This document shows positions 3,440 through 63,011 of a stretch of DNA of 64,000 nucleotides, in pieces. A program made the position numbers and the translations under genes. The stretch's first letter is position 1. Every line of letters starts with the position of its first letter. The notes under the pieces are model-generated. The model did not search any database and was not told the DNA's origin. It worked only from the letters and a program-made list of their open reading frames with translations. Location of the stretch: the NCBI GenBank assembly GCA_035758565.1, contig DASTXL010000002.1, forward strand, positions 275,118 through 339,117, read 5' to 3'. Origin of the DNA: Candidatus Saccharimonadales bacterium. GTDB taxonomy: Bacteria; Patescibacteriota; Saccharimonadia; Saccharimonadales; UBA10212.

Positions 3440-3549
3440 TCGTCGAAGCTTGCGCCACTACCTCGTTTTGCCCGTGGGCAAAAGCTTCGGTTTATGGCTA
3501 CGCTTCTCCTCTCAAGATTTTAAACAGCTACACTTGGTTTAAAATCTTG
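3440..3549 (-). repeat. structured tRNA 5' leader element, copy 1 (abuts tRNA-Lys UUU)
   Basis: Hairpin, then AGAGGAG, GCC, CGAAGC-hairpin(TTTTGCC/GGCAAAA)-CGAGG, GGCGCAAGCTTCGACGA, then tRNA +1. Confidence 0.75.
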
Positions 3550-6396: not shown

Positions 6397-7827
6397 ATGA
6401 GGCGGTACAAAAGAACCACCTTGATAACAGTTGGCTGCCTGGCGGCGCTAGCCGGGCTGGGTCTGGCGCGCAAGCTGCAATTCTTTCCGCCGGAGTGGAT
6501 TTTTATTTTTTGGCCGGCGCTACTCATTCTTCGGCGCCGTACAGCTCTCGGCCTGATTTTGGTAGTAATTTTAGGTTTAGGATTAGGACTCTGGCGCGGC
6601 GCGGCATATAGCCATAAGCTGGCCGAGCTAAAATCGCTAGCTACCCATCCGGTGACAATTGAAGCCACTGCGCTCACAGACTCTGTTTATGGCAACAATT
6701 CGCAGATACAATTTACCGCTAATCAAATTCAGCTAGTCGAACCCTATCAAAAACCACTGGCTGGCACATTTAAAATCAGCGGCTTTGGTGTGCATATGAT
6801 TTATCGAGGCGATCGCGTCGAAGTTTCTGGCAAACTATATCCAACTCGTGGCTCTAATCAAGCGACCATTGCTTATGCTCAGCTGGCCGAAATTTCTACC
6901 GGGCATAGTTTCTTTGCCGATATTTCTAGAAAGTTCACAACTGGCATGCAGAACGCTTTGCCGGAACCTTTAGCTAGTTTTGGGCTTGGTCTTTTGGTGG
7001 GATTGCGAACAATAATGCCGCAGGACATTCTGAATCAATTAACTGCTGTTAGTTTAGTTCACATAGTGGCGGTTAGCGGTTACAACCTAACGATTATTGT
7101 TCGTGGTATTGCCAGGTTAAAAATCCGCTCCAAATACCAAAGAACAATGTTGTCACTGGCTTTAATCGGCCTATTTGTGATGGTGACCGGTTTCAGCGCT
7201 TCAATTATTAGGGCAGCTTTGGTAAGTGCTCTAAGCTTGTGGGCGGCCTACTATGGGCGTCGGGTTAAACCGATGGTGCTTATCAGCTTTGCGGCCGCTC
7301 TGACCGGGCTTATGAACCCATTTTATGTATGGGGCGATTTGAGCTGGTACCTGTCTTTCTTAGCCTTCTTTGGAATTTTAATAATCGCGCCAACTATTCA
7401 GGCGCGGTTGTTTAGCCGGCAGCCAAAATTAATAACAGCTGTGTTGCTAGAAACATTGAGTGCCGAGCTCATGACTCTGCCGTTAATAATGATGAGCTTT
7501 AGTCAGTTGTCGATAATATCTCTGCTCGCTAATCTGTTAGTTGTGCCGCTTGTGCCACTGGCGATGTTACTCGCGGCGACGGCTGCCTTTGTGGGCGCGT
7601 TACTACCTCAACTAGCTGGTTGGTTTGCCTGGCCGGCCGTGGTGTTGCTAACTTATATGCTCGACGTGGTGCATATTCTTGCCAATATTCCATCGGTGCT
7701 ACTACATACATCTATCAGTGTGAATTTAATGCTGACATTCTACGTAATTCTTTTGCTTAGCGTATTGACTATGAGGCGTCGAGCCCGCATGAAATTATCC
7801 GAGATTGAAACTGTGCTAATAAGGTAG
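6397..7827 (+). CDS. comEC: ComEC/Rec2 family DNA uptake channel (no beta-lactamase domain)
   Basis: 476 aa polytopic membrane protein with an N-terminal DUF4131-like region and a competence domain (LVHIVAVSGYNLTI). Confidence 0.75.
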   Translation: MRRYKRTTLITVGCLAALAGLGLARKLQFFPPEWIFIFWPALLILRRRTALGLILVVILGLGLGLWRGAAYSHKLAELKSLATHPVTIEATALTDSVYGNNSQIQFTANQIQLVEPYQKPLAGTFKISGFGVHMIYRGDRVEVSGKLYPTRGSNQATIAYAQLAEISTGHSFFADISRKFTTGMQNALPEPLASFGLGLLVGLRTIMPQDILNQLTAVSLVHIVAVSGYNLTIIVRGIARLKIRSKYQRTMLSLALIGLFVMVTGFSASIIRAALVSALSLWAAYYGRRVKPMVLISFAAALTGLMNPFYVWGDLSWYLSFLAFFGILIIAPTIQARLFSRQPKLITAVLLETLSAELMTLPLIMMSFSQLSIISLLANLLVVPLVPLAMLLAATAAFVGALLPQLAGWFAWPAVVLLTYMLDVVHILANIPSVLLHTSISVNLMLTFYVILLLSVLTMRRRARMKLSEIETVLIR

Positions 7828-12092: not shown

Positions 12093-12117
12093 TGGTGGGG
12101 CTGGTTGGATTTGAACC
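12093..12117 (-). repeat. duplicate of the 3' terminal 25 nt of tRNA-Ile2 (T-arm half, acceptor, CCA)
   Basis: tggtggggctggttggatttgaacc is identical at 12093-12117 and 12138-12162. Confidence 0.85.
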
Positions 12118-12137
12118 CGACTATGATAATGAAGTTT

Positions 12138-12213
12138 TGGTGGGGCTGGTTGGATTTGAACCAACGACCAATCAGTTATGAGCCGACTGCTCTAACCCCT
12201 GAGCTACAGCCCC
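12138..12213 (-). tRNA. tRNA with CAU anticodon, probably tRNA-Ile2 (lysidine)
   Basis: 76-nt cloverleaf, loop CTCATAA. Variable/T region TTGGTCGTTGGTTCAAATCC resembles E. coli ileX. tilS is present in the window. Confidence 0.7.
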
Positions 12214-12816: not shown

Positions 12817-12923
12817 CCCCACAAAATCAGCGAAGCGTATTTTGTGGGGTAGAGGAGCAGCCTAACCGTAAACCGAAGCTTTTGCTGAAAAGCAAAACGA
12901 GGTAACGGCGCAAGTTGCGACGA
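12817..12923 (+). repeat. structured tRNA 5' leader element, copy 2 (abuts tRNA-fMet)
   Basis: ccccacaaaat...attttgtgggg hairpin, AGAGGAGCA, CGAAGC-hairpin(GAAA loop)-CGAGG, GGCGCAAGTTGCGACGA. Confidence 0.75.
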
Positions 12924-15164: not shown

Positions 15165-15375
15165 AAGTTAAAGTTTTTGAGCACTAACCGGCTTTGCGAG
15201 AGCCGGTTTTTCTTTACTCGCCTAGTCTGCGAGCCTTGAGGTAGGGCGAGTGGGTAGAGTGATAAGCTTGAAAAGCCAAACAAAAAACGCGCCAACTTTA
15301 TTGCGCGATTTAATGCTCGGCTGAAAGGTAAACTTCTGCGCGCAGCTTTGAATATGAGTCCTCTTTTGTACTTTT

Positions 15376-15452
15376 TGGTAGCAGCGACTGGATTCGAACC
15401 AGTGACCGCAGGCTTATGAGTCCTGTGCTCTAACCAACTGAGCTACGCTGCC
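15376..15452 (-). tRNA. elongator tRNA-Met(CAU)
   Basis: 77-nt cloverleaf very similar to E. coli metT (GGC.. GTAGCTCAGTTGGTTAGAGCAC); encoded CCA. Confidence 0.85.
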
Positions 15453-15471
15453 ACAAAAAAGTACAAAACTT

Positions 15472-15497
15472 GTTCTAACCAACTGAGCTACCCTGGC
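15472..15497 (-). pseudogene. orphan tRNA 5' fragment (acceptor 5' strand plus D-arm) fused to leader copy 3
   Basis: GCCAGGGTAGCTCAGTTGGTTAGAAC follows the leader end GCGACGC and stops in the D-arm. Confidence 0.6.
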
Positions 15498-15610
15498 GCG
15501 TCGCAATTTACGCCTCTGCCTCGTTTTGCTATTCGCAAAAACTTCGGCTTGTGGCTAGATTGCTCCTTACAAATTTTACAAGCAAGACAATCACTTGTCT
15601 TGTAAAATTT
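15498..15610 (-). repeat. structured tRNA 5' leader element, copy 3
   Basis: Hairpin with agacaagtgattgtcttgct apex, AAGGAGCA, GCC, CGAAGT-hairpin-CGAGG, GGCGTAAATTGCGACGC. Confidence 0.7.
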
Positions 15611-20800: not shown

Positions 20801-21832
20801 ATGGCTATCGAACGAATTGTGAACACTGCTGGTCCGACAGATGATCCAGCAGAGGAACAATTAGAAAACTCTTTGCGTCCACGTGATTTTGCTAATTATG
20901 TTGGCCAGGAACGCTTAAAGAAAAACTTAAAGCTAGCTATTGATGCTGCAAAGAAACGTGGCGAGGCAATCGACCATATTTTGCTCTATGGTCCGCCGGG
21001 TTTGGGCAAAACCACCATGGCAACTGTAATTGCCAACGAAATGGGCGCCCAAATTAGAATTACAAGCGGCCCGGCAATTGAACGGGCCGGTGATCTGGCT
21101 AGCTTGCTCACTAATTTGCAAGACGGCGATATTTTATTCATTGACGAAATTCACCGTCTGCACCGAACAGTCGAAGAAGTCCTGTACAGTGCCATGGAAG
21201 ATTTCAAGTTAGACATTATGCTTGGCAAAGGGCCAAGTGCTCGCAGCTTACGCTTGGACTTACCTAAGTTCACAATCATCGGCGCCACCACTCGCACCGG
21301 TTCGCTGGCCGCTCCTCTGCGAGACCGTTTTGGCTTAATTCATCGTCTAGAGTTTTATGCTCCGGATGAAATCGGTAGAATTATTAACCGCTCAGCCAAG
21401 ATTTTGAATGTTCCGGTTGATAAAAAGGCTGCTGGCCTACTAGCTGAACGCTCTCGTTTGACACCGCGCATAGCTAACCGTTTGCTAAAACGCGTGCGTG
21501 ACTATGCCGATATTAACGGTGACGGAATTATTGACGAAAAGGTCGCCGGGCAAGCTTTGAAGCTGCTCGAGATTGACGAGCTTGGCTTAGACCCATCAGA
21601 CCGCCAGCTTTTGACTGCGATAATCGAGCATTACGACGGCGGCCCGGTTGGTGTTGAGACCCTGGCAGCCTTAACTGCCGAAGAACGAACAACTATCGAA
21701 GACGTTAACGAACCATACCTGATGCAGATCGGCCTGTTAGAGCGTACGCCGCGGGGCCGCAAGGCAACATTGCGTGCTTGGAAACACTTAGGTAAAAATC
21801 CGAAAACCAAAGAGCAGGCTAGCTTGCTATAA
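20801..21832 (+). CDS. ruvB: Holliday junction DNA helicase RuvB
   Basis: [15 protein letters not shown]. Confidence 0.95.
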
Positions 21833-22932: not shown

Positions 22933-23084
22933 AAAATTATTACCTCCAAATTATAGCATAAGCGTGTTATCAACTTCTCTACAAAAATAGCTAACGCTTA
23001 AATAGAAGTAAATGCAGCAACATTTTTCACGTACCGGCAAAAACCAGCTATACTATTTATACGTATTTGATGAGGAGGTATAAG

Positions 23085-24107
23085 GTGGCAGATAAGACAA
23101 AAGCACCAACGAGCGATAAGGCCGCTAGCGGCAAAGAGCAGGCGCTGAAATTAGCAGTTGACCAGATTGAAAAGCAATTCGGTAAGGGCAGCATTATGCG
23201 GTTGGGCGAAGCCCACGCGGCAAATGTCGAGACCATTCCAACCGGCAGCTTAAGTTTAGACTTGGCCCTGGGCGGCGGTATTCCAAAAGGCCGCATCATA
23301 GAAATTTATGGTCCGGAAAGTTCTGGTAAAACCACGGTTTGCCTGCACGCCGTGGCCGAAGTTCAAAAATCCGGTGGTACGGCTGCCTACGTTGATGCGG
23401 AGCACGCGCTCGATCCGGCTTACGCCAAGCGCTTGGGCGTTAATATTGATAATCTTTTGATAAGCCAGCCAGACAGCGGCGAGCAAGCACTAGAAGTTGT
23501 CGAGACTTTGGTGCGGTCTAACGCCGTTGACATTATTGTTGTCGACTCGGTAGCAGCACTTGTGCCACAAGCGGAAATCGAAGGCGATATGGGCGACGCC
23601 CACATGGGCTTGCAGGCCCGCTTGATGAGCCAAGCCTTGCGCAAACTAACCGGTATTATCAGTCGCACCAAGTGCACGGTTATATTCGTCAACCAGCTGC
23701 GCATGAAGATTGGTGTGATGTTTGGCAACCCAGAAACTACAACCGGTGGTAACGCGCTGAAATTTTATGCCAGCGTACGCATGGATATCCGCCGCATTAG
23801 CCAAATTAAGCAAGGCGATGCCGTAATCGGCAATCACTGCCGAGTAAAAGTAGTCAAAAACAAGATCGCTCCGCCGTTCCGCGAGGCCGAATTCGACATT
23901 ATGTACAATCAAGGTATTAGTCGCGAAGGTGACGTAATTGACCTGGCTGTAGCTCACAACGTAGTTGGTAAATCGGGTGCTTGGTTCGAATACGAAGGCC
24001 AAAAGATTGCCCAAGGCCGCGAAGCCGCCAAGAAGTATCTAGCCGACAATCCAAAAGTTTTCGAAAAAGTCGCCGAGCAAACCGTTGCCGCCGCCACCAA
24101 GGAATAA
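23085..24107 (+). CDS. recA: recombinase RecA
   Basis: GPESSGKTT and L1/L2 regions. GTG at 23085 sits 6 nt after the GAGGAGG RBS; the ORF track starts earlier at 23067. Confidence 0.95.
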
Positions 24108-24109
24108 CA

Positions 24110-24490
24110 ATGTCTGGTTTTGAAACCGAAGAAGAATGGCAGGCAGCTAGAGATAGAACCAGTGAGATTTTGGGAAGAATCCATGGTTCGATAGTTGGTA
24201 ACTTTGTAGTGAACAAAGCAACCTCAAACGGTGACCATCCTGAGGCGGTGAGTGCCTCTTGGCAGAGTGTTCTATTGCCTGTGAGAGAAAAATTCACTCC
24301 AACCGGTGAAGGCCCGATTAAAGTTGTGGCTATAGACGCATTTAATTCTCTGGTAGAGGTTAACACCGACGAGACAGTTCTGCAGTACTGGCTAGATATC
24401 CTGCAAAGAGGCGGTGGCAACGAATATACAACGTTTGGTTTTGACCGCCGAGACGGCGAGTATCTGCCGCTTTTGCCGCTTGGGGACTAA
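24110..24490 (+). CDS. hypothetical protein (126 aa)
   Basis: ATG 3 nt after the recA stop; the 23981 start in the ORF track overlaps recA. Confidence 0.4.
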   Translation: MSGFETEEEWQAARDRTSEILGRIHGSIVGNFVVNKATSNGDHPEAVSASWQSVLLPVREKFTPTGEGPIKVVAIDAFNSLVEVNTDETVLQYWLDILQRGGGNEYTTFGFDRRDGEYLPLLPLGD

Positions 24491-25101
24491 TGAAAATTAC
24501 GACCTTAAAACAGCAAGTCAAGAACCCGAAGCGGGTTAGTATTTTTGTTGATGGAAAGTACGAATTTTCATTGAGCCTTGACGAGGTTGTTAAGTACAAA
24601 ATTACCAACGGTCAAGAGTTAAACAAAGCAGACCTTAAAAAGTTTAAAAAAATATCAGAAGACGGCAAACTGCGAGCCAGGGCTCTGGAGTGGCTGTTGA
24701 ATCGCCCGCACAGCACCAAAGAGTTCAAAGATTATCTCTACCGCAAAAAAGCCGATCCGGAATTCGGCGAAACATTGAGGGAAGAATTTAGCGCCAAAGG
24801 CTATTTGGATGATATTAAGTTTGCTGCTTGGTTTATTGATCTTCAGACTCGCAAAAATAAAAGCCGCCGGGCTATTCGCATGGAGCTTATGAAGAAGGGG
24901 ATCAGTGGAGAGCAGTTGGATATTGTTATGGAAGGCCAAGAAATCAACGAAGAAGAAGCCATAAAGGCCATTATTGATAAAAAGAAAAATTTAACGCGCT
25001 ACAAAAACGACCCGGTAAAGCTTAAGCAGTATTTAGTGGTGCAGGGGTTTAGCTACGAATTAGTTGATAAAACTATAAAGAAAGTTTTGGGGACCCCATA
25101 A
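24490..25101 (+). CDS. recX: RecX family regulator
   Basis: Position after recA; three-repeat helical RecX-like sequence. Confidence 0.7.
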   Translation: MKITTLKQQVKNPKRVSIFVDGKYEFSLSLDEVVKYKITNGQELNKADLKKFKKISEDGKLRARALEWLLNRPHSTKEFKDYLYRKKADPEFGETLREEFSAKGYLDDIKFAAWFIDLQTRKNKSRRAIRMELMKKGISGEQLDIVMEGQEINEEEAIKAIIDKKKNLTRYKNDPVKLKQYLVVQGFSYELVDKTIKKVLGTP

Positions 25102-31497: not shown

Positions 31498-31944
31498 ATG
31501 ATCAAAGCTATTCTGTTCGATAACGACGGGGTAATGTCTAAGTGGTTATTGCCCCGGTTTAGAATGCGGCGGCTGGCTAAGCAGCTTAGGCAAGATGGAA
31601 TCAAGGTTGGCATGCTGTCTAATGTCATCTGGGGGTTTGCGCAAGTTTATAAGTTAACGCGAGGCTATGACGGCTACGATTTAGTACTGCTGTCGTATAA
31701 AGAAAAAATGTCTAAACCCAATCCGGACTTTTATATGCTGGCGGTTAAAAAATTTGGCTTAAAACCTCACGAAATACTTTTTGTCGACAACCGAGAGGAT
31801 CTACTTGTTCCCGCTCAAAAGCTTGGTTTCAAAACCCTGCACTCCAAATCGGCCAGACAACTGCTTGTAGATATCAATCATTTGTTAAGCAAAGAAAATA
31901 AAAGACCGCCTAAAAGACACCCGCATCTAATTGGGCGAGGATAG
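31498..31944 (+). CDS. short HAD-superfamily hydrolase-like protein
   Basis: LFDNDGV motif I, SKPNPD, VDN. Confidence 0.5.
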   Translation: MIKAILFDNDGVMSKWLLPRFRMRRLAKQLRQDGIKVGMLSNVIWGFAQVYKLTRGYDGYDLVLLSYKEKMSKPNPDFYMLAVKKFGLKPHEILFVDNREDLLVPAQKLGFKTLHSKSARQLLVDINHLLSKENKRPPKRHPHLIGRG

Positions 31945-32066
31945 AGGACAACGCTTTCGCTTGCTCCACCGAACCTCCGACTATTGTCAGCTTCGCCGCC
32001 GAGTGGCAGACCGGGCCTTATCTCAAAGATAAAAATAAGCTCACCAAAAGGTGGGCGTATTTTTTA

Positions 32067-32143: not shown

Positions 32144-32258
32144 TCGTCGGAATTTGCGGCTTTTCCTCGTTTTGCGGTTCCGCAAAAGCTTCGGTCTAAG
32201 CCTAGATTCCTCCTCTCAATTTAACAAAAATTGCTAAAGCGGATTTTTGTTAAATTGG
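32144..32258 (-). repeat. structured tRNA 5' leader element, copy 4
   Basis: Hairpin, AGAGGAGGA, GGC, CGAAGC-hairpin-CGAGG, GCCGCAAATTCCGACGA. Confidence 0.75.
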
Positions 32259-33348: not shown

Positions 33349-33523
33349 ATAAAAGCTGACCAATAAAATTTGGTCAGTTTTTATTTATTGAGAGTACAAC
33401 TTAAACCGATAGGCATGAATAGCCAGTTGGCTGTTCATGTTTTCCTTGCTTGACCGCCTTGCGCAATTGCTTTAGCAATTTTGTCGCAGGCGCATGATAA
33501 CTCAAGTCCTCTCACCCCGACCA
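33349..33523 (+). repeat. tRNA-trailing module: terminator, ~150-nt insert, then 22-nt repeat of the tRNA-Pro(CGG) 3' end
   Basis: tcaagtcctctcaccccgacca at 33327-33348 and 33502-33523. Confidence 0.8.
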
Positions 33524-34773: not shown

Positions 34774-34890
34774 ACGTCCTCCCGTACGCCATTATCTCGT
34801 TTTGCCGCAGTAGCGTCAAAAACTTCGATTTATGGCTGCGGTCGTCCTCTCAATTTTGCAAAATCAGCGTAAGATGATTTTGCAAAATTG
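34774..34890 (-). repeat. structured tRNA 5' leader element, copy 5 (divergent 3' end)
   Basis: Hairpin, AGAGGACGA, GCC, CGAAGT-hairpin-CGAG, GGCGTACGGGAGGACGT. Confidence 0.7.
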
Positions 34891-35945: not shown

Positions 35946-36122
35946 TGGTACCCCCCGGCAAGATAGCGCCACGCTTCTCCGCTCACAAATGCTCGGAATA
36001 AATTCCTGCGCGTTTGTTCGCTGCGCCGAACTTGCGACTTGCGTCAGCTGTCGCTGCCGCGTCGCAAAACCGAATCTGTCAGAAGACCATAAAAATAGCC
36101 CAGACAAGCTGGGATATTTTTA
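35946..36122 (-). repeat. tRNA-trailing module behind tRNA-Arg(UCU), ending in a repeat of its 3' end
   Basis: tggtaccccccggcaagat (35946-35964) versus tggtacccccggcaagat (36123-36140); internal gcaagttcg T-arm half at 36027-36035. Confidence 0.8.
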
Positions 36123-36199: not shown

Positions 36200-36313
36200 T
36201 CGTCGAAGCTTGCGGCCTTGTCTCGTTTTGCCTGCTCGGCAAAAGCTTCGACCTTGGCCTAGGCTTCTCCTCTAAAATTTGTGAGCAAGACAACTACTTG
36301 CCTCACAAATTTT
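36200..36313 (-). repeat. structured tRNA 5' leader element, copy 6
   Basis: Hairpin with aggcaagtagttgtcttgct apex, AGAGGAGAA, GGCC, CGAAGC-hairpin-CGAG, GGCCGCAAGCTTCGACGA. Confidence 0.75.
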
Positions 36314-42253: not shown

Positions 42254-42432
42254 AAATAAAACCTCCAGCTTGTCTGGGTTTTTGTTTTGGTAATTCTGCC
42301 CGGCAGAATTGAACCGCCGAGGCGGTGCGGCGTAGTGAAAATCGCGCGCAAGAATTTATTCTGAGCACGATTGAACGAAGAAGTGCTTGCTCAGAGAGCA
42401 AGTGTGCGATATCCGTCCGCGGGTACCAAAAT
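42254..42432 (+). repeat. tRNA-trailing module behind tRNA-Arg(UCG), ending in a 22-nt repeat of its 3' end
   Basis: atccgtccgcgggtaccaaaat at 42236-42257 and 42411-42432; internal ggcggtgcg T-arm half at 42321-42329. Confidence 0.8.
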
Positions 42433-44751: not shown

Positions 44752-44866
44752 AAAAATTTGCGAGACAAGTAATTGTCTTGCTCGCAATTTTTAAGAGGAG
44801 CAACCTAGCCTAAAAACGAAGCTTTTGTCTATAGACAAAACGAGTTATAGGCGCAGGTTGCGACGA
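44752..44866 (+). repeat. structured tRNA 5' leader element, copy 7
   Basis: Hairpin with agacaagtaattgtcttgct apex, AGAGGAGCA, GCCT, CGAAGC-hairpin-CGAG, AGGCGCAGGTTGCGACGA. Confidence 0.75.
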
Positions 44867-44943
44867 GGGCCATTAGCTCAGTTGGTTAGAGCAGCGGCCT
44901 CTTAAGCCGCGTGTCCGGGGTTCGAGTCCCCGATGGCCCTCCA
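44867..44943 (+). tRNA. tRNA-Lys(CUU)
   Basis: 77-nt cloverleaf, loop CTCTTAA, encoded CCA. Confidence 0.9.
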
Positions 44944-45132
44944 AAAATAGAGCCGCACTTTAGGTGCGGTTTTGTTTTTGGAACGCTTAATCGAGCAAGC
45001 CAACTGCTTGGCTTGCGTGGGGCTCGAACAGGCGCAGCGATGTCGAACAATTCAGCGAGACCGCGAGCCGGGCCCGCGAGCGAAAAGCAAAGCTTTTCGA
45101 CTTGTGGGTCGAAGTCCCCGATGGCCCTCCAA
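44944..45132 (+). repeat. tRNA-trailing module behind tRNA-Lys(CUU), ending in a 20-nt repeat of its 3' end
   Basis: agtccccgatggccctccaa at 44925-44944 and 45113-45132; extra T-arm half GGGGCTCGAA at 45019-45028. Confidence 0.8.
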
Positions 45133-45280
45133 GCATAAGCGCTATAAAGGTGCTTAGAATTCCAGACCTTTCAAGTTAAGCCGAATACATTTGTTGCAAT
45201 AGCCTCCACTATGTCCCTCCAGCTTGGTTTATGCTGAAACTTCTCTACTGCGAGGAGTTTTTTATTGCTATTCTTTGACT

Positions 45281-49866: not shown

Positions 49867-50051
49867 ATTTGGCGGTTGTTTAGCTAGAGCTAACTTTTCG
49901 CATACATTTTAAGGGTCACCAAGTAGAGCTAGCGTTACAGACGATAAATAATTGTCGTTTGTAGCGCTAGCTCTCCACTCCGGAGCGCAAGCAAAAGAGT
50001 GCGGTGACCGGGCCCGGTCACCGCACTGTTCATTCGACCAGGAGGTGCACG

Positions 50052-51287
50052 ATGGGCCACAAGTTGCACAGCATCAAGAGGTCCGCGGCCATCACCCTGG
50101 CCGTCGCGATCCTCGCCGTTCTCGGAGCCGTCGTCGCCATCGAGGCGCCGACGTCGCACGCTGCGACGGCCTCGGCCGCCCCGGCGTCCGCTCAGCACGT
50201 GATGGACTCCACGTGTCCGGTGCAGTTCGCTGCGCCGATCTACACCTGCGAGATCCAGCCGGTCGGGGTCAAGACGAACAAGTCGTCGAGCTCGACCTCC
50301 CACGTGCACGTCACGACGAAGAAGAACACCACCGTGACTCTCACGATGGTGAAGCGGTACGAGAAGATCAAGCACGTCCGCGTCGCCATCAACGGCGGCG
50401 CTCCCGTCAAGACGGGCTGCGTCGACCCGACGAAGATCAAGTCGTGGAACTTCCACGACGGCGACTCCTTCTACAACGCCGACAAGTTCCACCGCGAGCT
50501 CCCGGACACCTGGGAGAGCGGCTGGGAGATCTGCGGCGCCCATCCCGTGCGCAACTGGCACGGGCACCCCGGCCTGTACGAGGTGGGCAAGAAGAAAAAC
50601 TGCCGCAACACGCCGATCGCCATTCCGATCCAGGAGCAGGAGATCGCCGTGCCGCAGAAGGTCGTCGAGATGACGAAGACGCAGTTCGTGTCGAACTTCG
50701 ACCGCGTCGTCAAGAAGTCATCGACCTCGACCAGCACGAAGGACGTCGAGTACTACTGCCGCACCGCCGGGTACAACCCCGGCGTGGTGAACGGTCGCGA
50801 GGTCTGCTACCACGTGGTGCAGATCCCGGTCGGCACCACGCCGACGACTCCGACGGGCACGATCGTGTGCAGCAACATCGGCAACAACAACGGTGGCAAC
50901 TGCAACACGAACACGACGACGACCGTGGTGACCACCACCACGACAACGCCGTCGCAGTCGCCGAGCTGCACGCTCAACCTGGCCGAGAGCAAGGGCAACC
51001 AGAACGCTCAGGCCTCGGTCAACACGACCGGCGGTTCGGCCACCTTCGTCCAGTTCACCTGGGGCGACGGGGCGACGGACCAGGGTTCGTTCGTGTCGGC
51101 GACGCACACCTACGCGACGCCGGCTCCGGCTCCCGCCGGGACGTACGTGACCTACACGATCACCGCTCGCGCGGTGATCGGCGGCAACTGGTTCGACTGC
51201 GGTCACCGCGACTACAAGGTCGCGGCACCGCCGACGAACCCGACGGGGACCAACCCCGACGGGCCTCCCGGTCTGCCGAACGGCTAG
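50052..51287 (+). CDS. secreted Cys-rich protein with a C-terminal PKD-like domain, encoded in a high-GC island
   Basis: AGGAGG RBS 6 nt upstream. Signal peptide ending SHA|AT; FTWGDGATD...HTYATP...GTYVTYTITAR PKD-like motif. About 9 in 10 codons end in G/C. Confidence 0.65.
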   Translation: MGHKLHSIKRSAAITLAVAILAVLGAVVAIEAPTSHAATASAAPASAQHVMDSTCPVQFAAPIYTCEIQPVGVKTNKSSSSTSHVHVTTKKNTTVTLTMVKRYEKIKHVRVAINGGAPVKTGCVDPTKIKSWNFHDGDSFYNADKFHRELPDTWESGWEICGAHPVRNWHGHPGLYEVGKKKNCRNTPIAIPIQEQEIAVPQKVVEMTKTQFVSNFDRVVKKSSTSTSTKDVEYYCRTAGYNPGVVNGREVCYHVVQIPVGTTPTTPTGTIVCSNIGNNNGGNCNTNTTTTVVTTTTTTPSQSPSCTLNLAESKGNQNAQASVNTTGGSATFVQFTWGDGATDQGSFVSATHTYATPAPAPAGTYVTYTITARAVIGGNWFDCGHRDYKVAAPPTNPTGTNPDGPPGLPNG

Positions 51288-51553
51288 TCAACCAGGCAAC
51301 GGCTGGGGCGGGCGTGAAGCCCGCCCCAGCTCGCGCCGATTGTGTGTGAAGGGTAATAAGCTCGCTGAACCAAAGCGAGTGGGGTGGAGCGCGGCTTTTT
51401 AAGTCCTGCGTTCACCCCTCTCTCAACCCAAAATGGATTCTCATGATCCGATTGTTTCTTAGGCTCGCCTCGGGCGAACATTAAAAATTTGAAGCGAACG
51501 GTTAGTCAAAAAATATTACAGATTTAATATGAAATTTAAGAAAGGATACAACT

Positions 51554-52603: not shown

Positions 52604-52811
52604 GCCTTAAGTAGCTGATCTTGTGGATAAGCATTTGCGCTTTACGCAAGATTATGCTAGGGTGGGTTTAGTACGAAGAGTAATCGTGACTGACCGCTCT
52701 TAAAAACAAAATTTAGCCATTAATCCCTCGAACACGTGGTGAGGACGTGCCTCGGGGGATTTTTGGTGCCAGAGAGGAGTTAATGTGATAAAATCTCTCT
52801 GTTGTTTTAAT

Positions 52812-52918
52812 CAGAAACATAAGACAAGTAATTGTCTTGCTTGTGTTTCTGGAAGGAGCAATCTAGCGCTAGGCGAAATTTTATTTATAAAATAGAGCAA
52901 GCGTGTAAATTGCGACGT
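52812..52918 (+). repeat. structured tRNA 5' leader element, copy 8 (variant hairpin 2)
   Basis: Hairpin with agacaagtaattgtcttgct apex, GAAGGAGCA, GCGC, CGAAATTTTAT-tta-ATAAAAT, GCGTGTAAATTGCGACGT. Confidence 0.7.
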
Positions 52919-53133
52919 GGTCCCATCGTCTAGCGGTTAGGACACCGGGTACCTTCACCCCACAAAACAAGTTTTGCGGGGACCCCGATCATTCCGGCAA
53001 CAGGGTGAGAACTGCCATTTGGCAGTTCGCAAGGCCACAGGCGCGACGGCGCCGAGGAGGGCCCGACCGAATTTTCAGCAGAAAATTACGGGTGGGTCGA
53101 TTCCGAATCGAACGTATACAATTAGTCGACAAT
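52919..53133 (+). pseudogene. disrupted tRNA-Glu copy: intact 5' half, then degenerate pieces of the remainder separated by hairpin-containing inserts
   Basis: 52919-52950 is identical to 53134-53165. CATTCCGGCAACAGGGT and GGGTCGATTCC match later parts of tRNA-Glu. Confidence 0.55.
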
Positions 53134-53208
<75 letters not shown>

Positions 53209-57077: not shown

Positions 57078-59261
57078 GTGCAAGATTTACTAGCTGAGCT
57101 TAATGATGAGCAGCGGCGGGCGGTCGAGGTAACCGAGGGCCCGCTTTTAATTCTGGCTGGTGCGGGTAGCGGCAAAACCAAGACCCTGACCCACAGGATT
57201 GCTTACATATTGGAGCAGCATAAAGCTACGCCTTTTAATATTTTGGCCGTGACATTTACAAATAAGGCTGCCGGCGAAATGCGCGAGCGCATCTGGAAGC
57301 TTACACAAGGTGGTAATGCCGGCGATGACATTCCGCGCGGCTTCATGCCTTTTATGGGTACTTTCCACAGCATTTGCGTGCGGTTGCTGCGTCAGGACGG
57401 CGAGGCCTTTGGCGTTCCGCGTAACTTCGTAATTTGGGATGAGGCCGACCGCCAAGCGGCCGTTAAACAAGCCGCTCGGGCGCTAAGTCTTGATGAAAAG
57501 CAGTTTCCAGCGCGCATGTTGAGCTCGTTGATTTCCAGCGCCAAAAACGAAATGGTTAGCCCGGCCGAGTTTGCAGCAACCGCCGGTAATACCCCAGCCG
57601 CCCAAGCGGTTGCCAAGGTTTATCCGGCGTACGAACGACTGTTGCGCGAGGGCGCCGCATTAGACTTTGACGATTTAATTAGCCGTACAGTACAGATGCT
57701 GAAAGATCACAAACAAATCCGCGACAAATGGCAACAGCAATTCAAGTACGTAATGGTTGACGAGTATCAAGATACCAACGCCGCTCAGTACCGCCTGGTG
57801 AAACTTTTAACCGGACCGCATAAAAATATTGCCGTGGTTGGCGACGACTGGCAAAGTATTTATTCTTGGCGCGGCGCCGACTTTAGAAATATTCTTAATT
57901 TTGAAAAAGATTATCCAGGTTGTGTGGTTATCAAGCTTGAGCAAAACTACCGTAGTACCAAGAATATCTTGGAGGCCGCCCATAAAGTTATAAGTCAAAA
58001 CCGCCAGCGCAGTGATAAAAAACTGTGGACGGCCAGCGCCGCCGGATCTCCGGTACAGGTTTTGCCGGTTGCCAGTGAGCGGTCCGAGGCCGAAACTATT
58101 GCCCGCCGTATAAAAAACGCCGTTGATATGCGCGCTCGCAATTATCACGATTTTGCTGTTCTTTACCGCACCAACGCTCAGGGCCGCGCTATTGAAGAAG
58201 TTCTGCTCCACTACGGTTTGCCGTACAGAATTGTTGGCGGGGTGCGTTTTTACGACCGCAAAGAGATCAAAGATATTGTTGCCTATTTACGCTTAATTTA
58301 TCAGCCGGACGATACGGCGGCCTTTGAGCGAGTAGTAAACGTGCCGACTCGGGGCATTGGTCCACGCTCTATAGAAGTTTTTAACGAGTGGCGGCAAACT
58401 AATAACTATTCCTTAAGCCAAGGCTTAGCTATGGTTGAGCAATGCGCTGAACTGACACCCAAAGCTCGGCTTGGCCTAGTTCAACTTGCTGATATTGTTG
58501 CGAGTTTTCGTGAGCAGATGAGCGAACAAATCCCATCGGTCTTGATTGACAGTTTAGTCAAAAGGTTGAACTATCTTAATTATTTGCAAGACGGTTCGCC
58601 GCAAGGGGATGCCCGCGCCGAAAACGTCCGTGAGCTTTTGAGCGTGGCTGCCGAGTACCAAGACGTGGGTCTTGATGATTTTTTGGAAGAGGTTTCGCTA
58701 ATTACTGACCTAGAACGCGCTAACCAAGAACCCGACTCAATCGTATTAATGACTCTGCACTCTGCTAAGGGTTTGGAATTTCCGGTTGTTTTTATGACTG
58801 GCCTTGAGGAATCCATTATGCCTCACAGCCGAGCACTTTATGATGCCAACGAAATGGAAGAAGAGCGCCGGTTAATGTACGTAGGAATGACCCGCGCTCG
58901 GGAGGAACTATTTTTGAGCTACGCCACTGAGCGAACTTTGTTTGGTGGTCGCCAGCATAATCCGCCGAGCCGGTTTATTTCCGATGCTGGAATAACTTCG
59001 GTAGCCGAGCCGGTTTATGCACAGTCTGGCTTTGGACAAAGAAAGTTTGAATCATCTTCTGCTAATGATTACTCACCGCTTGCTCCTTCAAGTGATGAGC
59101 CGCGCTATGTGCCAGAACTTGAAGAAGGCGATGGCGTGCGTCACCAAATATTTGGCGTTGGCACGGTGTTGGAATTAGATGGCGATACGGCTACGATTTA
59201 CTTCAAGGGCAAGGGTAGCAAGCGCCTAAACATATCTTTTGCCCCGATTGAAAAGTTATGA
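57078..59261 (+). CDS. pcrA: ATP-dependent DNA helicase PcrA/UvrD
   Basis: AGAGSGKT, DEYQDTN, TLHSAKGLEF, VGMTRA. Confidence 0.9.
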   Translation: MQDLLAELNDEQRRAVEVTEGPLLILAGAGSGKTKTLTHRIAYILEQHKATPFNILAVTFTNKAAGEMRERIWKLTQGGNAGDDIPRGFMPFMGTFHSICVRLLRQDGEAFGVPRNFVIWDEADRQAAVKQAARALSLDEKQFPARMLSSLISSAKNEMVSPAEFAATAGNTPAAQAVAKVYPAYERLLREGAALDFDDLISRTVQMLKDHKQIRDKWQQQFKYVMVDEYQDTNAAQYRLVKLLTGPHKNIAVVGDDWQSIYSWRGADFRNILNFEKDYPGCVVIKLEQNYRSTKNILEAAHKVISQNRQRSDKKLWTASAAGSPVQVLPVASERSEAETIARRIKNAVDMRARNYHDFAVLYRTNAQGRAIEEVLLHYGLPYRIVGGVRFYDRKEIKDIVAYLRLIYQPDDTAAFERVVNVPTRGIGPRSIEVFNEWRQTNNYSLSQGLAMVEQCAELTPKARLGLVQLADIVASFREQMSEQIPSVLIDSLVKRLNYLNYLQDGSPQGDARAENVRELLSVAAEYQDVGLDDFLEEVSLITDLERANQEPDSIVLMTLHSAKGLEFPVVFMTGLEESIMPHSRALYDANEMEEERRLMYVGMTRAREELFLSYATERTLFGGRQHNPPSRFISDAGITSVAEPVYAQSGFGQRKFESSSANDYSPLAPSSDEPRYVPELEEGDGVRHQIFGVGTVLELDGDTATIYFKGKGSKRLNISFAPIEKL

Positions 59262-62620: not shown

Positions 62621-63011
62621 GGGGCTGATTTAAGCTCGACGATCGGACATTAACAAATTTAGATGGCAGGTCGGTAAAGCACTGAACGTTATCCGGTGCA
62701 AGCCAATAACTGGCAACAAACTTACAGCTGCTATCGACAGCGTTCTCGCTAGTCGCCAGCCAGCTTACGCAGCCTAATTTAGGTTGCCATCGGCTATTTT
62801 GACGCCAGATAGAAGTATCAGCCGGTGTCATATCATCTGGACGCTCTGAAGCTTTCGGTAATCCGCCGAAGCTTTAGCTAAGATTTCCTGGATTGCCACC
62901 AAGGTTTTTTGACCGTTTCAAGCCTTGGTTTAAGTATCCAAACGGCCTAAGCCTGTAGTCATCAAATTTGTTACCAATCGGACGCGGGGGCAGTACCCGC
63001 CAGCTCCACCA
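62621..63011 (+). ncRNA. ssrA: tmRNA (SsrA)
   Basis: 5' GGGGCTGATTT, 3' GGACGCGGG..CCCGCCAGCTCCACCA, G3:U70. Internal reading frame ends ...ASRQPAYAA-TAA (stop 62775-62777); terminator at 63016-63045. Confidence 0.85.

Follow-up and report, generated by a model that had tools for sequence, protein, structure and literature searches.

Why is the tRNA-Lys(CUU) gene at 44867-44943 (+) followed, less than 200 nt downstream, by a second exact copy of its own 3′ end, and where does the sequence between the two copies come from? The gene lies in the 64,000-nt stretch of a Saccharibacteria (TM7) genome that was analysed here as a whole (the window). A sequence-only reading had described behind this tRNA a terminator, GC-rich sequence, a 20-nt repeat of the tRNA end extending degenerately into a whole T arm, a second T-arm half followed by a 10-mer shared with the tRNA-Arg(UCU) module, and a leader-like stretch, and had concluded that pieces of leader and tRNA are joined in a non-canonical order.

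To address this, we first re-examined the sequence, and the observation itself was confirmed. The tRNA is called by ARAGORN and scores 69.3 bits with the Rfam tRNA model. The 20-mer AGTCCCCGATGGCCCTCCAA occurs exactly twice in the window, at 44925-44944 and 45113-45132, where dinucleotide shuffles give 0 expected; it starts at A58 of the T loop and runs one base past CCA. GGGGCTCGAA is present at 45019-45028 and the 10-mer GGCGCAGCGA at 45031-40. The latter also follows GTCGCAAGTTCG in the tRNA-Arg(UCU) module at 36018-36027 on the minus strand, with 3 copies in the window against 0.15 expected, of which the third, at 50227, lies in a 65% GC gene and is probably a chance occurrence. The parts of the locus and its sister modules are as follows.

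44867..44943 (+): functional tRNA-Lys(CUU), whose last 19 nt (44925-44943, A58 to CCA) are read here as supplied by the insert.
44925..44944 (+): proximal copy of the 20-nt repeat, read as the new 3′ end (T-loop A58, T-stem 3′ strand, acceptor 3′ strand, CCA and one further A); by analogy with the loci L141 and L147 described below, it is the incoming allele.
44945..44979 (+): proximal trailer and terminator (AAAATAGAGCCGCAC…), stem-loop at 44953-44969 and T run at 44970-44979, the apex of an imperfect palindrome that continues into TCCA…TGGA; the terminator scan reports the minus-strand version, so it can act in both directions.
44979..44994 (+): first part of an antisense copy, TGGAACGCTTAATCGA, a degenerate reverse complement of CCA, discriminator and acceptor 3′ strand (compare TGGAGGGCCATCG).
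44995..45016 (+): conserved hairpin H1, GCAAGCCAA-CTGC-TTGGCTTGC, inserted inside the antisense copy and predicted in the computed fold.
45017..45029 (+): second part of the antisense copy, GTGGGGCTCGAAC, the reverse complement of T loop plus T-stem 3′ strand, which had been taken for a second T-arm half.
45030..45108 (+): cargo of family B, AGGCGCAGCGA…GCGAGCCGGGCCCGCGAG-hairpin-ACTTGTGGG, in which helix P1 pairs 45031-33 with 45067-69, helix P2 pairs 45072-80 with 45101-09 and has three G·U pairs, and a variable capping hairpin lies at 45081-45099.
45109..45132 (+): distal copy, TCGA plus the exact 20-mer at 45113-45132, read as the displaced original 3′ end of the tRNA gene.
45133..45151 (+): likely native tRNA trailer, AGCATAAGCGCTATAAAGG, with a possible old terminator at 45236-45270.
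35946..36122 (-): sister module behind tRNA-Arg(UCU) with family-A cargo, holding the T-stem 5′ half GTCGCAAGTTCG (36038-36027), GGCGCAGCGA (36027-36018) and the distal copy (35964-35946).
42254..42428 (+): sister module behind tRNA-Arg(UCG) with family-A cargo, distal copy at 42411-42428.
33349..33523 (+): sister module behind tRNA-Pro(CGG) with family-D cargo, distal copy at 33502-33523.
31932..32066 (-): sister module behind tRNA-Pro(UGG) with a truncated family-A cargo, the T loop being split by about 20 nt.

The interpretation given by the sequence-only reading was only partly supported. In line with it, tRNA pieces are indeed joined in a non-canonical order, and the shared 10-mer is a real, conserved feature: it is the 5′ end of the inserted cargo and is invariant in four family-B copies, while a related G-G-Y-G-N-A-G-C-G-A starts family-A cargos. 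Three points, however, required correction. First, GGGGCTCGAAC is better read as the reverse complement of the T arm (GGGGACTCGAAC); in the near-identical strain L154 (L numbers denote the related loci and strains examined) it reads GGGACTCGAAC, an exact 11-nt antisense match. The middle tRNA piece is hence inverted, which had been missed, and the order is sense, terminator, antisense, cargo, sense. Second, the GGG of the supposed degenerate whole T arm GGGTCGAAGTCCCC belongs to the conserved right end of the cargo, which reads CTTGTGGG, CTTGTGAG or CTTATGGG in the four family-B copies. Third, GCAAAGCTTTTCGAC, which had been compared to the 3′ end of the leader, is one arm of a hairpin that has a different sequence in each family member, and its likeness to the leader is at chance level (best local score 20 against 19.1 ± 2.8 in shuffles, with 194 of 500 shuffles at least as good). 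Loss of similarity under a control for composition had been named beforehand as a refuting outcome; it was seen only for the leader likeness, not for the repeats or the 10-mer, and inclusion of leader sequence in the module is thus not supported. Also missed were the reading of the arrangement as an insertion relative to an empty site and the membership of the module in a large family spread over many tRNAs and genomes.

To evaluate how common this arrangement is, we sampled 154 tRNAs, 142 from 120 related loci and 12 from the window. Of these, 36 have a significant distal copy, usually 150-190 nt downstream and starting 16-22 nt from the 3′ end, and the same build: the tRNA and a terminator, a degenerate antisense copy of the tRNA's 3′ third at an offset of about 35-70, a structured cargo of 60-110 nt, and a sense copy running from the T loop to CCA. 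The antisense copy just after the terminator is significant across the family (Mann-Whitney p = 2e-8 and 1e-3). Within the window, 6 of 12 tRNA genes carry such a module. Tandem arrays occur in L064, L054 and L147, L107 has an orphan module, and L081 has the same left end with a 1-kb gene as cargo.

To find out whether the arrangement is an insertion, we compared tRNA-Lys(CUU) loci. In L098, a leaderless and module-free locus, the tRNA is followed directly by AGCATAAGCGTAATG… and a terminator. The same AGCATAAGC trailer follows the distal copy in the window and in L073, whereas what follows the proximal copy differs between these two loci. The distal copy is therefore most likely the displaced original 3′ end, and about 188 bp was inserted. 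L098 is, however, not a close strain and differs in the T stem, so that a model in which the element lands after the native terminator and carries its own copy of 3′ end plus trailer is disfavoured only by the coding-target data presented below and is not excluded for this locus. At the same tRNA the cargo is family B in the window, family D in L073 and A-like in L010, while L032, L047 and L098 have none. The strains closest to the window (L153, L154) both carry the module, so that no recent gain or loss was seen, and look-ups beside other modules gave contigs that were too short, or nothing.

Conversely, one cargo sits at several targets. Family B occurs behind tRNA-Lys, tRNA-Ser(GCU) (L028, L085), rplL (L141) and fusA (L147). 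L141 and L147 were recovered by a metagenome scan with the family-B pattern, in which the remaining 27 of 29 loci were chance hits in high-GC genes. Hairpin H1 occurs likewise in L085 (GCAAGCCAACTGTTTGGCTTGC) and, with two compensatory pair changes, in L028 (GCGAGTCAACTGCTTGACTCGC), and the Ser modules carry the Ser version of the antisense copy, GGGATTCGAAC. At the coding targets the displaced copies keep their reading frame. In rplL both copies encode KVTLK*, with two synonymous differences; in fusA three copies encode KDVEEED*, QDIEEED* and KDVEEED*, where all differences but one are synonymous or conservative (one K→Q). The antisense copy matches the proximal copy at 15 of 15 positions in the young L141 module. 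Each copy was therefore once a working gene end, and the newest is next to the gene.

The cargo shows conserved structure. In family A, 10 of 11 predicted pairs show compensatory changes. In family B, the consensus fold contains compensatory hairpins and three G·U pairs, present in 3-4 of the 4 copies, which form only on the + strand. A covariance model hits the window at 45030-45110 with 86.6 bits, and the predicted + strand fold is unusually stable (-70.8 kcal/mol, z = -3.98, 0 of 200 shuffles) compared to the minus strand (z = -2.72). Rfam searches at gathering and permissive thresholds with this module (E ≤ 10), three other window modules and a family-C module (E ≤ 1) returned only tRNA and noise out of 4227 families (Rfam 15), and only tRNA and tmRNA were found in the window. 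The only ORF of the insert (33 codons, 45040-45138) is not conserved in L028 or L141.

Taken together, we consider it more likely than not (probability roughly 0.6) that positions 44925-45112 are an insertion of about 188 bp in the T loop of the tRNA-Lys(CUU) gene, belonging to a family of small, gene-less integrative cassettes common in Saccharibacteria. In this view the cassette carries its own copy of the target's 3′ end, which completes the tRNA, an intrinsic terminator, which ends the transcript, an inverted copy of the same 3′ end, so that these three form one long imperfect hairpin with the terminator at its tip, and a structured cargo consisting of H1 and the family-B core; the resident 3′ end and its trailer would be left intact but unused just downstream, which is why the 20-mer appears twice. 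The anatomy, its recurrence across tRNAs and genomes, the exchange of cargo families at one target, the presence of one cargo family at several targets and the conservation of + strand structure are established by the data. That this is an insertion and not vertical decay rests on one empty-site comparison plus the coding-target data and is strongly supported but not fully settled. The mechanism, in contrast, is inferred from topology alone: the cassette would be non-autonomous and would enter by recombination at the conserved gene end, either through a trans-acting site-specific recombinase using the sense/antisense hairpin as a folded, double-strand-like copy of the target, as CTX phage and integron attC sites do, or through RecA-mediated recombination of imported single-stranded DNA with the conserved gene as left and the short distal copy as right anchor. 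Repeated events would stack modules with the newest next to the gene.

Both routes meet difficulties. One protein is unlikely to recognise core sites as different as tRNA T arms, the rplL end and the fusA end, RecA-type recombination on a 20-nt right-hand anchor would be inefficient, and neither route explains how a cargo first acquires the sense and antisense copies of a new target. The antisense copy is strongly degenerate in its acceptor part and may be a relic with no present function. A Pfam search of roughly 50 ORFs scanned across the 64-kb window found no integrase, transposase or other recombinase, while ComEC, RecA, RecX, RuvB and UvrD are present; no circular form was found either. 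In searches confined to the 120 loci, viral contigs, phages and plasmids, without whole genomes, no autonomous element with the same ends was found: viral contigs scanned for the distal copy, the family-A core and the family-B pattern gave nothing or chance hits in high-GC coding DNA, and BLAST of the module against phages and plasmids gave no match. The 281-aa ORF of L081 and the proteins in the larger cargo of L022 have no Pfam or PDB match.

Saccharibacteria have tiny genomes, mostly single-copy tRNA genes and few recognised mobile elements, yet roughly a quarter of the tRNA genes sampled carry one of these cassettes, and literature searches returned no description of such modules. If mobile, they would be a major and overlooked source of genome change and horizontal transfer in a large uncultivated lineage, an example of an element that heals the essential gene it interrupts, and possibly a natural, compact way to address insertions to chosen conserved sites. 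In practical terms, the modules create tRNA fragments and repeats that break assemblies and confuse tRNA annotation, while the distal copies record earlier alleles of the target gene, which can be used to trace past transfers. A more far-reaching possibility, which remains doubtful on present evidence, is that they are a new class of self-repairing, retargetable mini mobile elements of Patescibacteria, each of which would carry a hairpin made of a sense and an antisense copy of the 3′ end of a highly conserved gene (tRNA, rplL, fusA); the folded single strand, or its antisense arm acting as a built-in guide or splint, would direct insertion into that gene. No element-encoded enzyme would then be needed, possibly because the element rides on competence-imported single-stranded DNA, and the structured cargo (families A-D) would be the part that moves between targets. 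The conserved tRNA leader, which is itself present or absent between near-identical strains, may be a sister element for the 5′ side.

Compared to known systems, the modules share with tRNA-gene integrative elements with a T-loop crossover (tyrosine integrases, e.g. mycobacteriophage Ms6, PMC1762012) an insertion point in the T loop, where many tRNA-targeting elements cross over, a replacement 3′ end that keeps the tRNA intact, an old 3′ end left as a direct repeat, tandem arrays from repeated use of one site, and a core that can be changed to reach other tRNAs (PMC1762012); such elements form the class reportedly termed T-loop sublocation by Williams (2002). They differ in being only about 190 bp long without an integrase or any other gene, in an extra inverted copy of the core next to a terminator, and in cargo found with unrelated cores including protein-gene ends. 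CIMEs, the cis-mobilisable elements of Streptococcus, and other non-autonomous mini-elements are likewise flanked by att-like direct repeats, lack recombination genes and are presumed to be mobilised in trans, but CIMEs are kilobases long and derive from known ICEs, whereas here no parent element is known and the hairpin, antisense copy and structured cargo are specific to this family. In the CTX-phage attP used by XerCD and in integron attC, two inverted copies of the site separated by a short spacer can fold into a hairpin imitating the double-stranded target; the integrated order of new half-site, spacer, whole inverted site, cargo and old half-site is the CTX prophage topology, and hairpins are imperfect and structure is strand-specific. 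The proximal copy, terminator and antisense copy here form one such palindrome. However, there is no 28-bp dif site and no conserved core box (attC R″ RYYYAAC / R′ GTTRRRY), as the T loop GTTCGAG / CTCGAAC fits only 5 of 7 positions and the rplL and fusA cores have no such box, the targets are many different gene ends, and any use of Xer or IntI would be purely inferred.

In 3′-end or C-terminal displacement arrays, such as orphan toxin tips in rhs and cdi loci or the islands stacked at ssrA in Dehalococcoides (PMC3146451), incoming DNA with a new version of a conserved gene end also displaces the resident end, which stays downstream as an orphan with the newest copy next to the gene; those systems swap functional payloads of hundreds to thousands of bp, whereas here the swapped ends are equivalent and the payload is a 60-110-nt structured non-coding piece. 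IS200/IS605 miniature derivatives (PATEs) with TnpB guide RNAs are similarly small, hairpin-rich and strand-specific, with a structured scaffold of about 100 nt immediately followed by about 20 nt of target-identical sequence, as in a scaffold-plus-guide RNA. A guide-RNA (TnpB-like) reading was nevertheless rejected, since there is no constant target-adjacent motif at the junctions (GAAC, TTAG and GACG in four copies) and since the guide would also match the occupied site. There is also no Rfam IS605-orfB or HEARO match and no TnpA or TnpB nearby, and those elements do not rebuild their target.

Of the alternatives, the one that survives best, though unlikely, is the worn-down remnant of an integrase-borne prophage or genomic island at a T-loop att site, with attL and attR left after deletion of the interior and the cargo representing old att arms. 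Direct repeats from the T loop to CCA are the classic signature of tRNA-targeting integrases (PMC1762012), larger islands do sit at these tRNAs (1.3 kb with two ORFs and a 60-nt tRNA-Ser 3′ half in L022, 1 kb with one ORF in L081), and MITE-like internal deletion is a known route to miniature elements. However, dozens of independent deletions would have to stop at the same 150-190 bp, an inverted copy of the core is not part of classical attP arms, one cargo family serves four unrelated core sequences, no integrase-bearing relative was found in the 120 loci, in viral contigs, or in phage and plasmid collections, and covarying hairpins point to selection on folded structure and not on linear protein-binding sites.

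Slightly less likely is a host-beneficial structured RNA, a trailer-encoded small RNA or tRNA-like minihelix made by read-through of the tRNA terminator and processed at the second CCA end, which need not exclude mobility. The stable + strand fold, the G·U pairs and compensatory hairpins that work only on the tRNA-sense strand, the module end …CCA paired to 5′ TGGA and the native terminator that often persists after the distal copy are in line with this notion. Against it, the module lies behind a canonical terminator with no promoter found on either strand, cargo families differ between orthologous tRNAs and many orthologues have none, distal copies and antisense acceptor parts decay, no Rfam family matches, and strand-specific wobble pairs would equally fit a folded single DNA strand. 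A tRNA-like reading, with the antisense acceptor part pairing with the distal acceptor strand, was rejected because the acceptor part is the least conserved piece and ARAGORN calls nothing there, and a minus-strand antisense RNA starting at the distal copy was rejected because no promoter was found and the cargo helices need + strand G·U pairs.

Still less likely is an in-situ replication accident without any mobile element, in which template switching at short inverted repeats (the terminator hairpin and the palindromic TTCGAA of the T loop) produced an inverted triplication, as in ODIRA or DUP-TRP/INV-DUP. The order sense, hairpin, antisense, sense with both turn-rounds at inverted repeats is what that mechanism yields, and a paper on template-switch amplification was returned by a literature search; in L052 the distal copy is followed by a terminator homologous to the proximal one, and in L078, L020 and L054 the repeat extends past CCA. 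At this locus, however, the proximal and distal trailers are unrelated (AAAATAGAGCC… against AGCATAAGCGC…), the cargo is foreign sequence shared with other genes and genomes, and at rplL and fusA the mostly synonymous or conservative differences indicate that the copies diverged as working genes in different lineages. In the cases examined here, proximal and distal copies with their flanks are never identical in young modules and every module contains non-target sequence, although template switching may still be the ultimate origin of the hairpin in some donor. Finally, an assembly artefact is refuted, short of read-level inspection, since, although short exact repeats and many similar leader and tRNA sequences could confuse short-read assemblers and Logan contigs do break near these tRNAs, the same architecture appears in more than 30 loci from unrelated MAGs and complete genomes and the whole module is colinear in two other, independent assemblies from different sequencing runs, one of which carries three private SNPs.

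We found 12 tRNA genes and a tmRNA in the window. The latter lies at 62621-63011 and scores 88.2 bits in Rfam, although the tRNA/tmRNA scan of ARAGORN did not report it. The tRNA-Lys(CUU) gene lies at 44867-44943 and is followed by an intrinsic terminator (stem at 44953-44969, T run to 44979), about 130 nt of GC-rich sequence and a second copy of the last bases of the tRNA. Hereby, the 20-mer AGTCCCCGATGGCCCTCCAA, which begins at A58 in the T loop, is exact at 44925-44944 and 45113-45132, while no such repeat is expected by chance. The sequence-only reading of this locus had reported this repeat together with a second T-arm half, GGGGCTCGAA (45019-28), and the motif GGCGCAGCGA (45031-40), and its observation is confirmed, with both elements found at these positions. 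The 10-mer GGCGCAGCGA recurs in the module behind tRNA-Arg(UCU) at 36018-27 on the minus strand. Overall, it has three copies in the window compared to 0.15 expected, of which the third sits in a 65% GC gene.

To evaluate whether this arrangement is unique, we mapped every tRNA against its flanks, which showed the same pattern in the window behind tRNA-Pro(UGG), Pro(CGG), Arg(UCU) and Arg(UCG), and in reduced form behind Met. Since a conserved 5′ leader stands before 7 of the 12 tRNAs, we used it to probe species-representative genomes. The exact-pattern scan gave more than 120 hits, almost all in Saccharibacteria, and the 120 loci returned (denoted L in the following, as are loci from other searches) are nearly all Candidatus Saccharibacteria or Saccharimonadales, so that the window comes from that lineage. 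Using these data we scored 154 tRNAs, 142 from those loci and 12 from the window. Of these, 36 have a significant sense copy of their own 3′ end downstream, which usually lies 150-190 nt away and usually starts 16-22 nt from the 3′ end, that is, in the T loop. The tRNAs involved include Leu, Val, Phe, Asp, His, Ser, Pro, Arg, Lys, Gly, Glu, Ile, Met and Ala. Control searches, in which the 5′ end was searched downstream or the 3′ end upstream, gave far fewer long matches.

The leader core CGAAGYTTTTG-loop-CAAAACGAG itself occurs 7 times in the window (3462-3489, 12874-12901, 15520-15546, 32166-32193, 34796-34827, 36222-36250 and 44817-44844) against 0 expected, is covered by no Rfam family, and several copies are preceded by a hairpin of the form GACAAGTRATTGTCTTGC followed by a T run. 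At tRNA-Lys(CUU) the conserved 69-nt leader (AAGAGGAG…CGAAGCTTTTG…CAAAACGAG…GGCGCAGGTTGC) occupies 44793-44861. It is missing in the near-identical strain L154 (compared over L154:1-855), where the sequence reads …CAATTTTT/GATGA/GGGCC while the rest of the locus, including the 3′ module, is colinear, and it is also absent from the tRNA-Lys(CUU) locus L098. The leader therefore looks like a separate small insertion placed exactly at the tRNA 5′ end.

Every full module reads, in order, as the tRNA and a terminator, an antisense copy of the tRNA 3′ third beginning TGGN (the complement of NCCA), a short loop or hairpin, in some families a sense copy of the T-stem 5′ half, a family-specific cargo of 60-110 nt, and a sense copy running from the T loop to CCA. 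The antisense piece just after the terminator is significant, with a median alignment score of 20 in module-bearing tRNAs compared to 12 in the others (p = 2e-8), and compared to a median of 15 against the antisense of a random other tRNA (p = 1e-3). Some antisense copies are long and exact, such as the 15 nt found in L107, an orphan module. In the module behind tRNA-Lys(CUU) these parts are arranged as follows.

Parts of the module behind tRNA-Lys(CUU)
44979-44994, antisense copy, part a, TGGAACGCTTAATCGA
44995-45016, hairpin H1, a conserved hairpin
45017-45029, antisense copy, part b, GTGGGGCTCGAAC
45030-45108, cargo of family B
45109-45132, distal copy, TCGA plus the exact 20-mer

The supposed second T-arm half is therefore the inverted T arm, and the near-identical strain L154 has GGGACTCGAAC at this position, an exact antisense 11-mer.

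The locus L098, which has neither leader nor module, is followed directly by AGCATAAGCGTAATG… and a terminator. In the window and in L073, another tRNA-Lys(CUU) locus, that same trailer follows the distal copy, whereas the sequence after the proximal copy differs in each. The distal copy plus trailer is thus most simply the original gene end, and the insert would then comprise the new 3′ end, terminator, antisense copy and cargo, about 188 bp (44925-45112). L098 is not a close strain, so that this comparison alone is not conclusive, but the data on protein-coding targets presented below point the same way. Moreover, occupancy varies across tRNA-Lys(CUU) loci.

Cargo found at tRNA-Lys(CUU) loci
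Window, family B
L073, family D
L010, A-like
L032, L047 and L098, none

Other arrangements also occur. Modules stack in tandem, each with its own terminator, in L064 and L054, or can be orphaned with no tRNA adjacent, as in L107. They can also carry a gene in the cargo slot. Hereby, L081 (6774-7939) has the same left end, with a terminator and the antisense piece TGGTCTGAGGCGGGCTCTAAC, followed by a 281-aa ORF without Pfam or PDB match and a distal tRNA-Gly end 1.07 kb away. A further large insert at the same kind of site, in L022 (4001-5579), consists of a family-C module and then 1.3 kb with two unknown ORFs, bounded by a 60-nt 3′ half of tRNA-Ser that starts in the anticodon loop.

The cargo is not tied to tRNAs. 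A metagenome scan with the family-B pattern gave mostly chance hits, but two were true copies, one behind rplL (L141) and one behind fusA (L147). Both have the same layout, namely gene end, palindromic hairpin, antisense gene end, cargo B, second gene end and second terminator. In rplL the proximal and distal ends both encode KVTLK* and differ at two synonymous sites, while the antisense copy matches the proximal end at 15 of 15 positions. In fusA, three successive ends encode KDVEEED*, QDIEEED* and KDVEEED*, and all differences but one, a K→Q exchange, are synonymous or conservative. Here, two B-family modules lie in tandem (L147:1327-1800), and in the gene-proximal one the palindrome turns directly at the stop codon (…GAGGATTAGTATCCTC…) with no separate terminator hairpin. 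Copies that keep their coding sense must have diverged while they were working gene ends in different lineages. So each event brings a donor version of the end and displaces the resident one, which argues against a purely local duplication and also against a target-site duplication made at insertion. For the module behind tRNA-Lys(CUU), an assembly artefact is ruled out, as two independent assemblies carry the identical module, one with three SNPs.

Cargo family A occurs behind the Arg(UCU), Arg(UCG) and Pro(UGG) tRNAs of the window and in many loci, and folds into a long hairpin in which 10 of 11 predicted pairs show compensatory changes. Family B has five clear members (window, the tRNA-Ser loci L028 and L085, L141 and L147). 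It shows an invariant 5′ end, AGGCGCAGCG, an invariant GCGAGCCGGGCCCGCGA, a helix P2 (GCCCGCGAG with CUUGUGGGU) with three G·U pairs present in 3-4 of the 4 aligned copies, and a capping hairpin whose sequence differs in each copy while the pairing is kept. Hairpin H1 shows two compensatory changes between the window and L028. The G·U pairs would be A·C mismatches on the other strand, and the selected structure therefore belongs to the tRNA-sense strand, as RNA or as folded single-stranded DNA. The whole module folds well on that strand (z = -3.98, compared to -2.72 for the complement). The shared GGCGCAGCGA is thus the common 5′ end of the cargos. In contrast, the resemblance of GCAAAGCTTTTCGAC to the tRNA leader, proposed in the sequence-only reading, is chance, and that stretch is simply this copy's version of the variable hairpin. 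The interpretation given there is thus only partly supported, in that the joined tRNA pieces and the shared motif hold up, while the leader pieces do not.

No Rfam family matches any module, and nothing similar was found in viral contigs, phages or plasmids. No promoter was found inside the module on either strand. Among the roughly 50 window ORFs scanned there is no integrase or transposase, but ComEC, RuvB, RecA, RecX and a UvrD/PcrA helicase are encoded (6397-7827, 20801-21832, 23067-24107, 24490-25101 and 57078-59261).

[quoted passage not shown] That the module is an insertion is strongly supported, while its non-autonomous nature and its entry by recombination at the conserved gene end are inferred. 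The order of new half-site, spacer, whole inverted site, cargo and old half-site is the topology left by elements that integrate as a folded single strand whose hairpin imitates the double-stranded target, as is the case for CTX phage with XerCD and for integron attC sites. Imported single-stranded DNA is what ComEC delivers. Alternatively, the module could enter by RecA-mediated exchange, in which the conserved gene would be the long left anchor and the distal copy the short right anchor, which also explains why the newest module lies next to the gene. Neither route, however, explains how a cargo first gains the sense and antisense copies of a new target, and it is at this step that a built-in guide or splint role of the antisense arm would matter.

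Compared to known systems, the closest match is the T-loop class of tRNA-targeting integrative elements, with which the module shares the crossover position, restoration of the tRNA, the direct repeat and tandem arrays (PMC1762012). The module lacks the integrase gene that defines this family and adds an inverted core copy and a retargetable cargo. It resembles only in part mini att-flanked elements (CIMEs), CTX or attC-type folded sites, 3′-end displacement arrays at rhs/cdi or ssrA loci, and template-switch inverted triplications. The feature is a member of a widespread family of gene-end replacement cassettes, which we could not find described and which varies an established theme. That its mechanism is of a new type is a real but tentative possibility.

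Further rearrangements are seen at other tRNA genes of the window. At 52800-53133 an older leader-bearing copy of tRNA-Glu(UUC) lies upstream of the working tRNA-Glu (53134-53208). Hereby, positions 1-32 are exact (52919-52950), a 43-nt hairpin insert sits in the anticodon loop, and a cargo with a B-like core sits in the T arm (53025-53098, a weak covariance-model hit), followed by TCGATTCC/GAATCGA, a sense/antisense turn. The working gene has its own TACAAT box, and the arrangement looks like a mirror-image, 5′-side version of the same replacement process. On the minus strand at 15353-15546, tRNA-Met (15376-15452) is nested inside an older tRNA, in the order leader, a 30-nt 5′ tRNA fragment (match at 15491-15474), TTTTGTACTTTTTTGT, the intact tRNA, AAAAGTACAAAAG, then AGGACTCATA (old anticodon arm) and a decayed family-A-like piece (GCGCGCAGAAGTT…CCGAGCAT), the flanking 12-mers being inverted repeats. 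At 12093-12137 on the minus strand, another tRNA-Met (12138-12213) is followed after 16 nt by a contiguous copy of its last 29 nt (25 exact) and then the terminator. This is a bare tandem duplication with no terminator, antisense copy or cargo between, which may be a scar or a minimal product of the same process. Finally, a 65% GC gene in a 47% GC genome lies at 50053-51287. It encodes a signal-peptide protein with no Pfam match, is bracketed by perfect GC-rich hairpins (49998-50030 and about 51303-51330), and looks like a recent acquisition from a high-GC organism such as an actinobacterial host.
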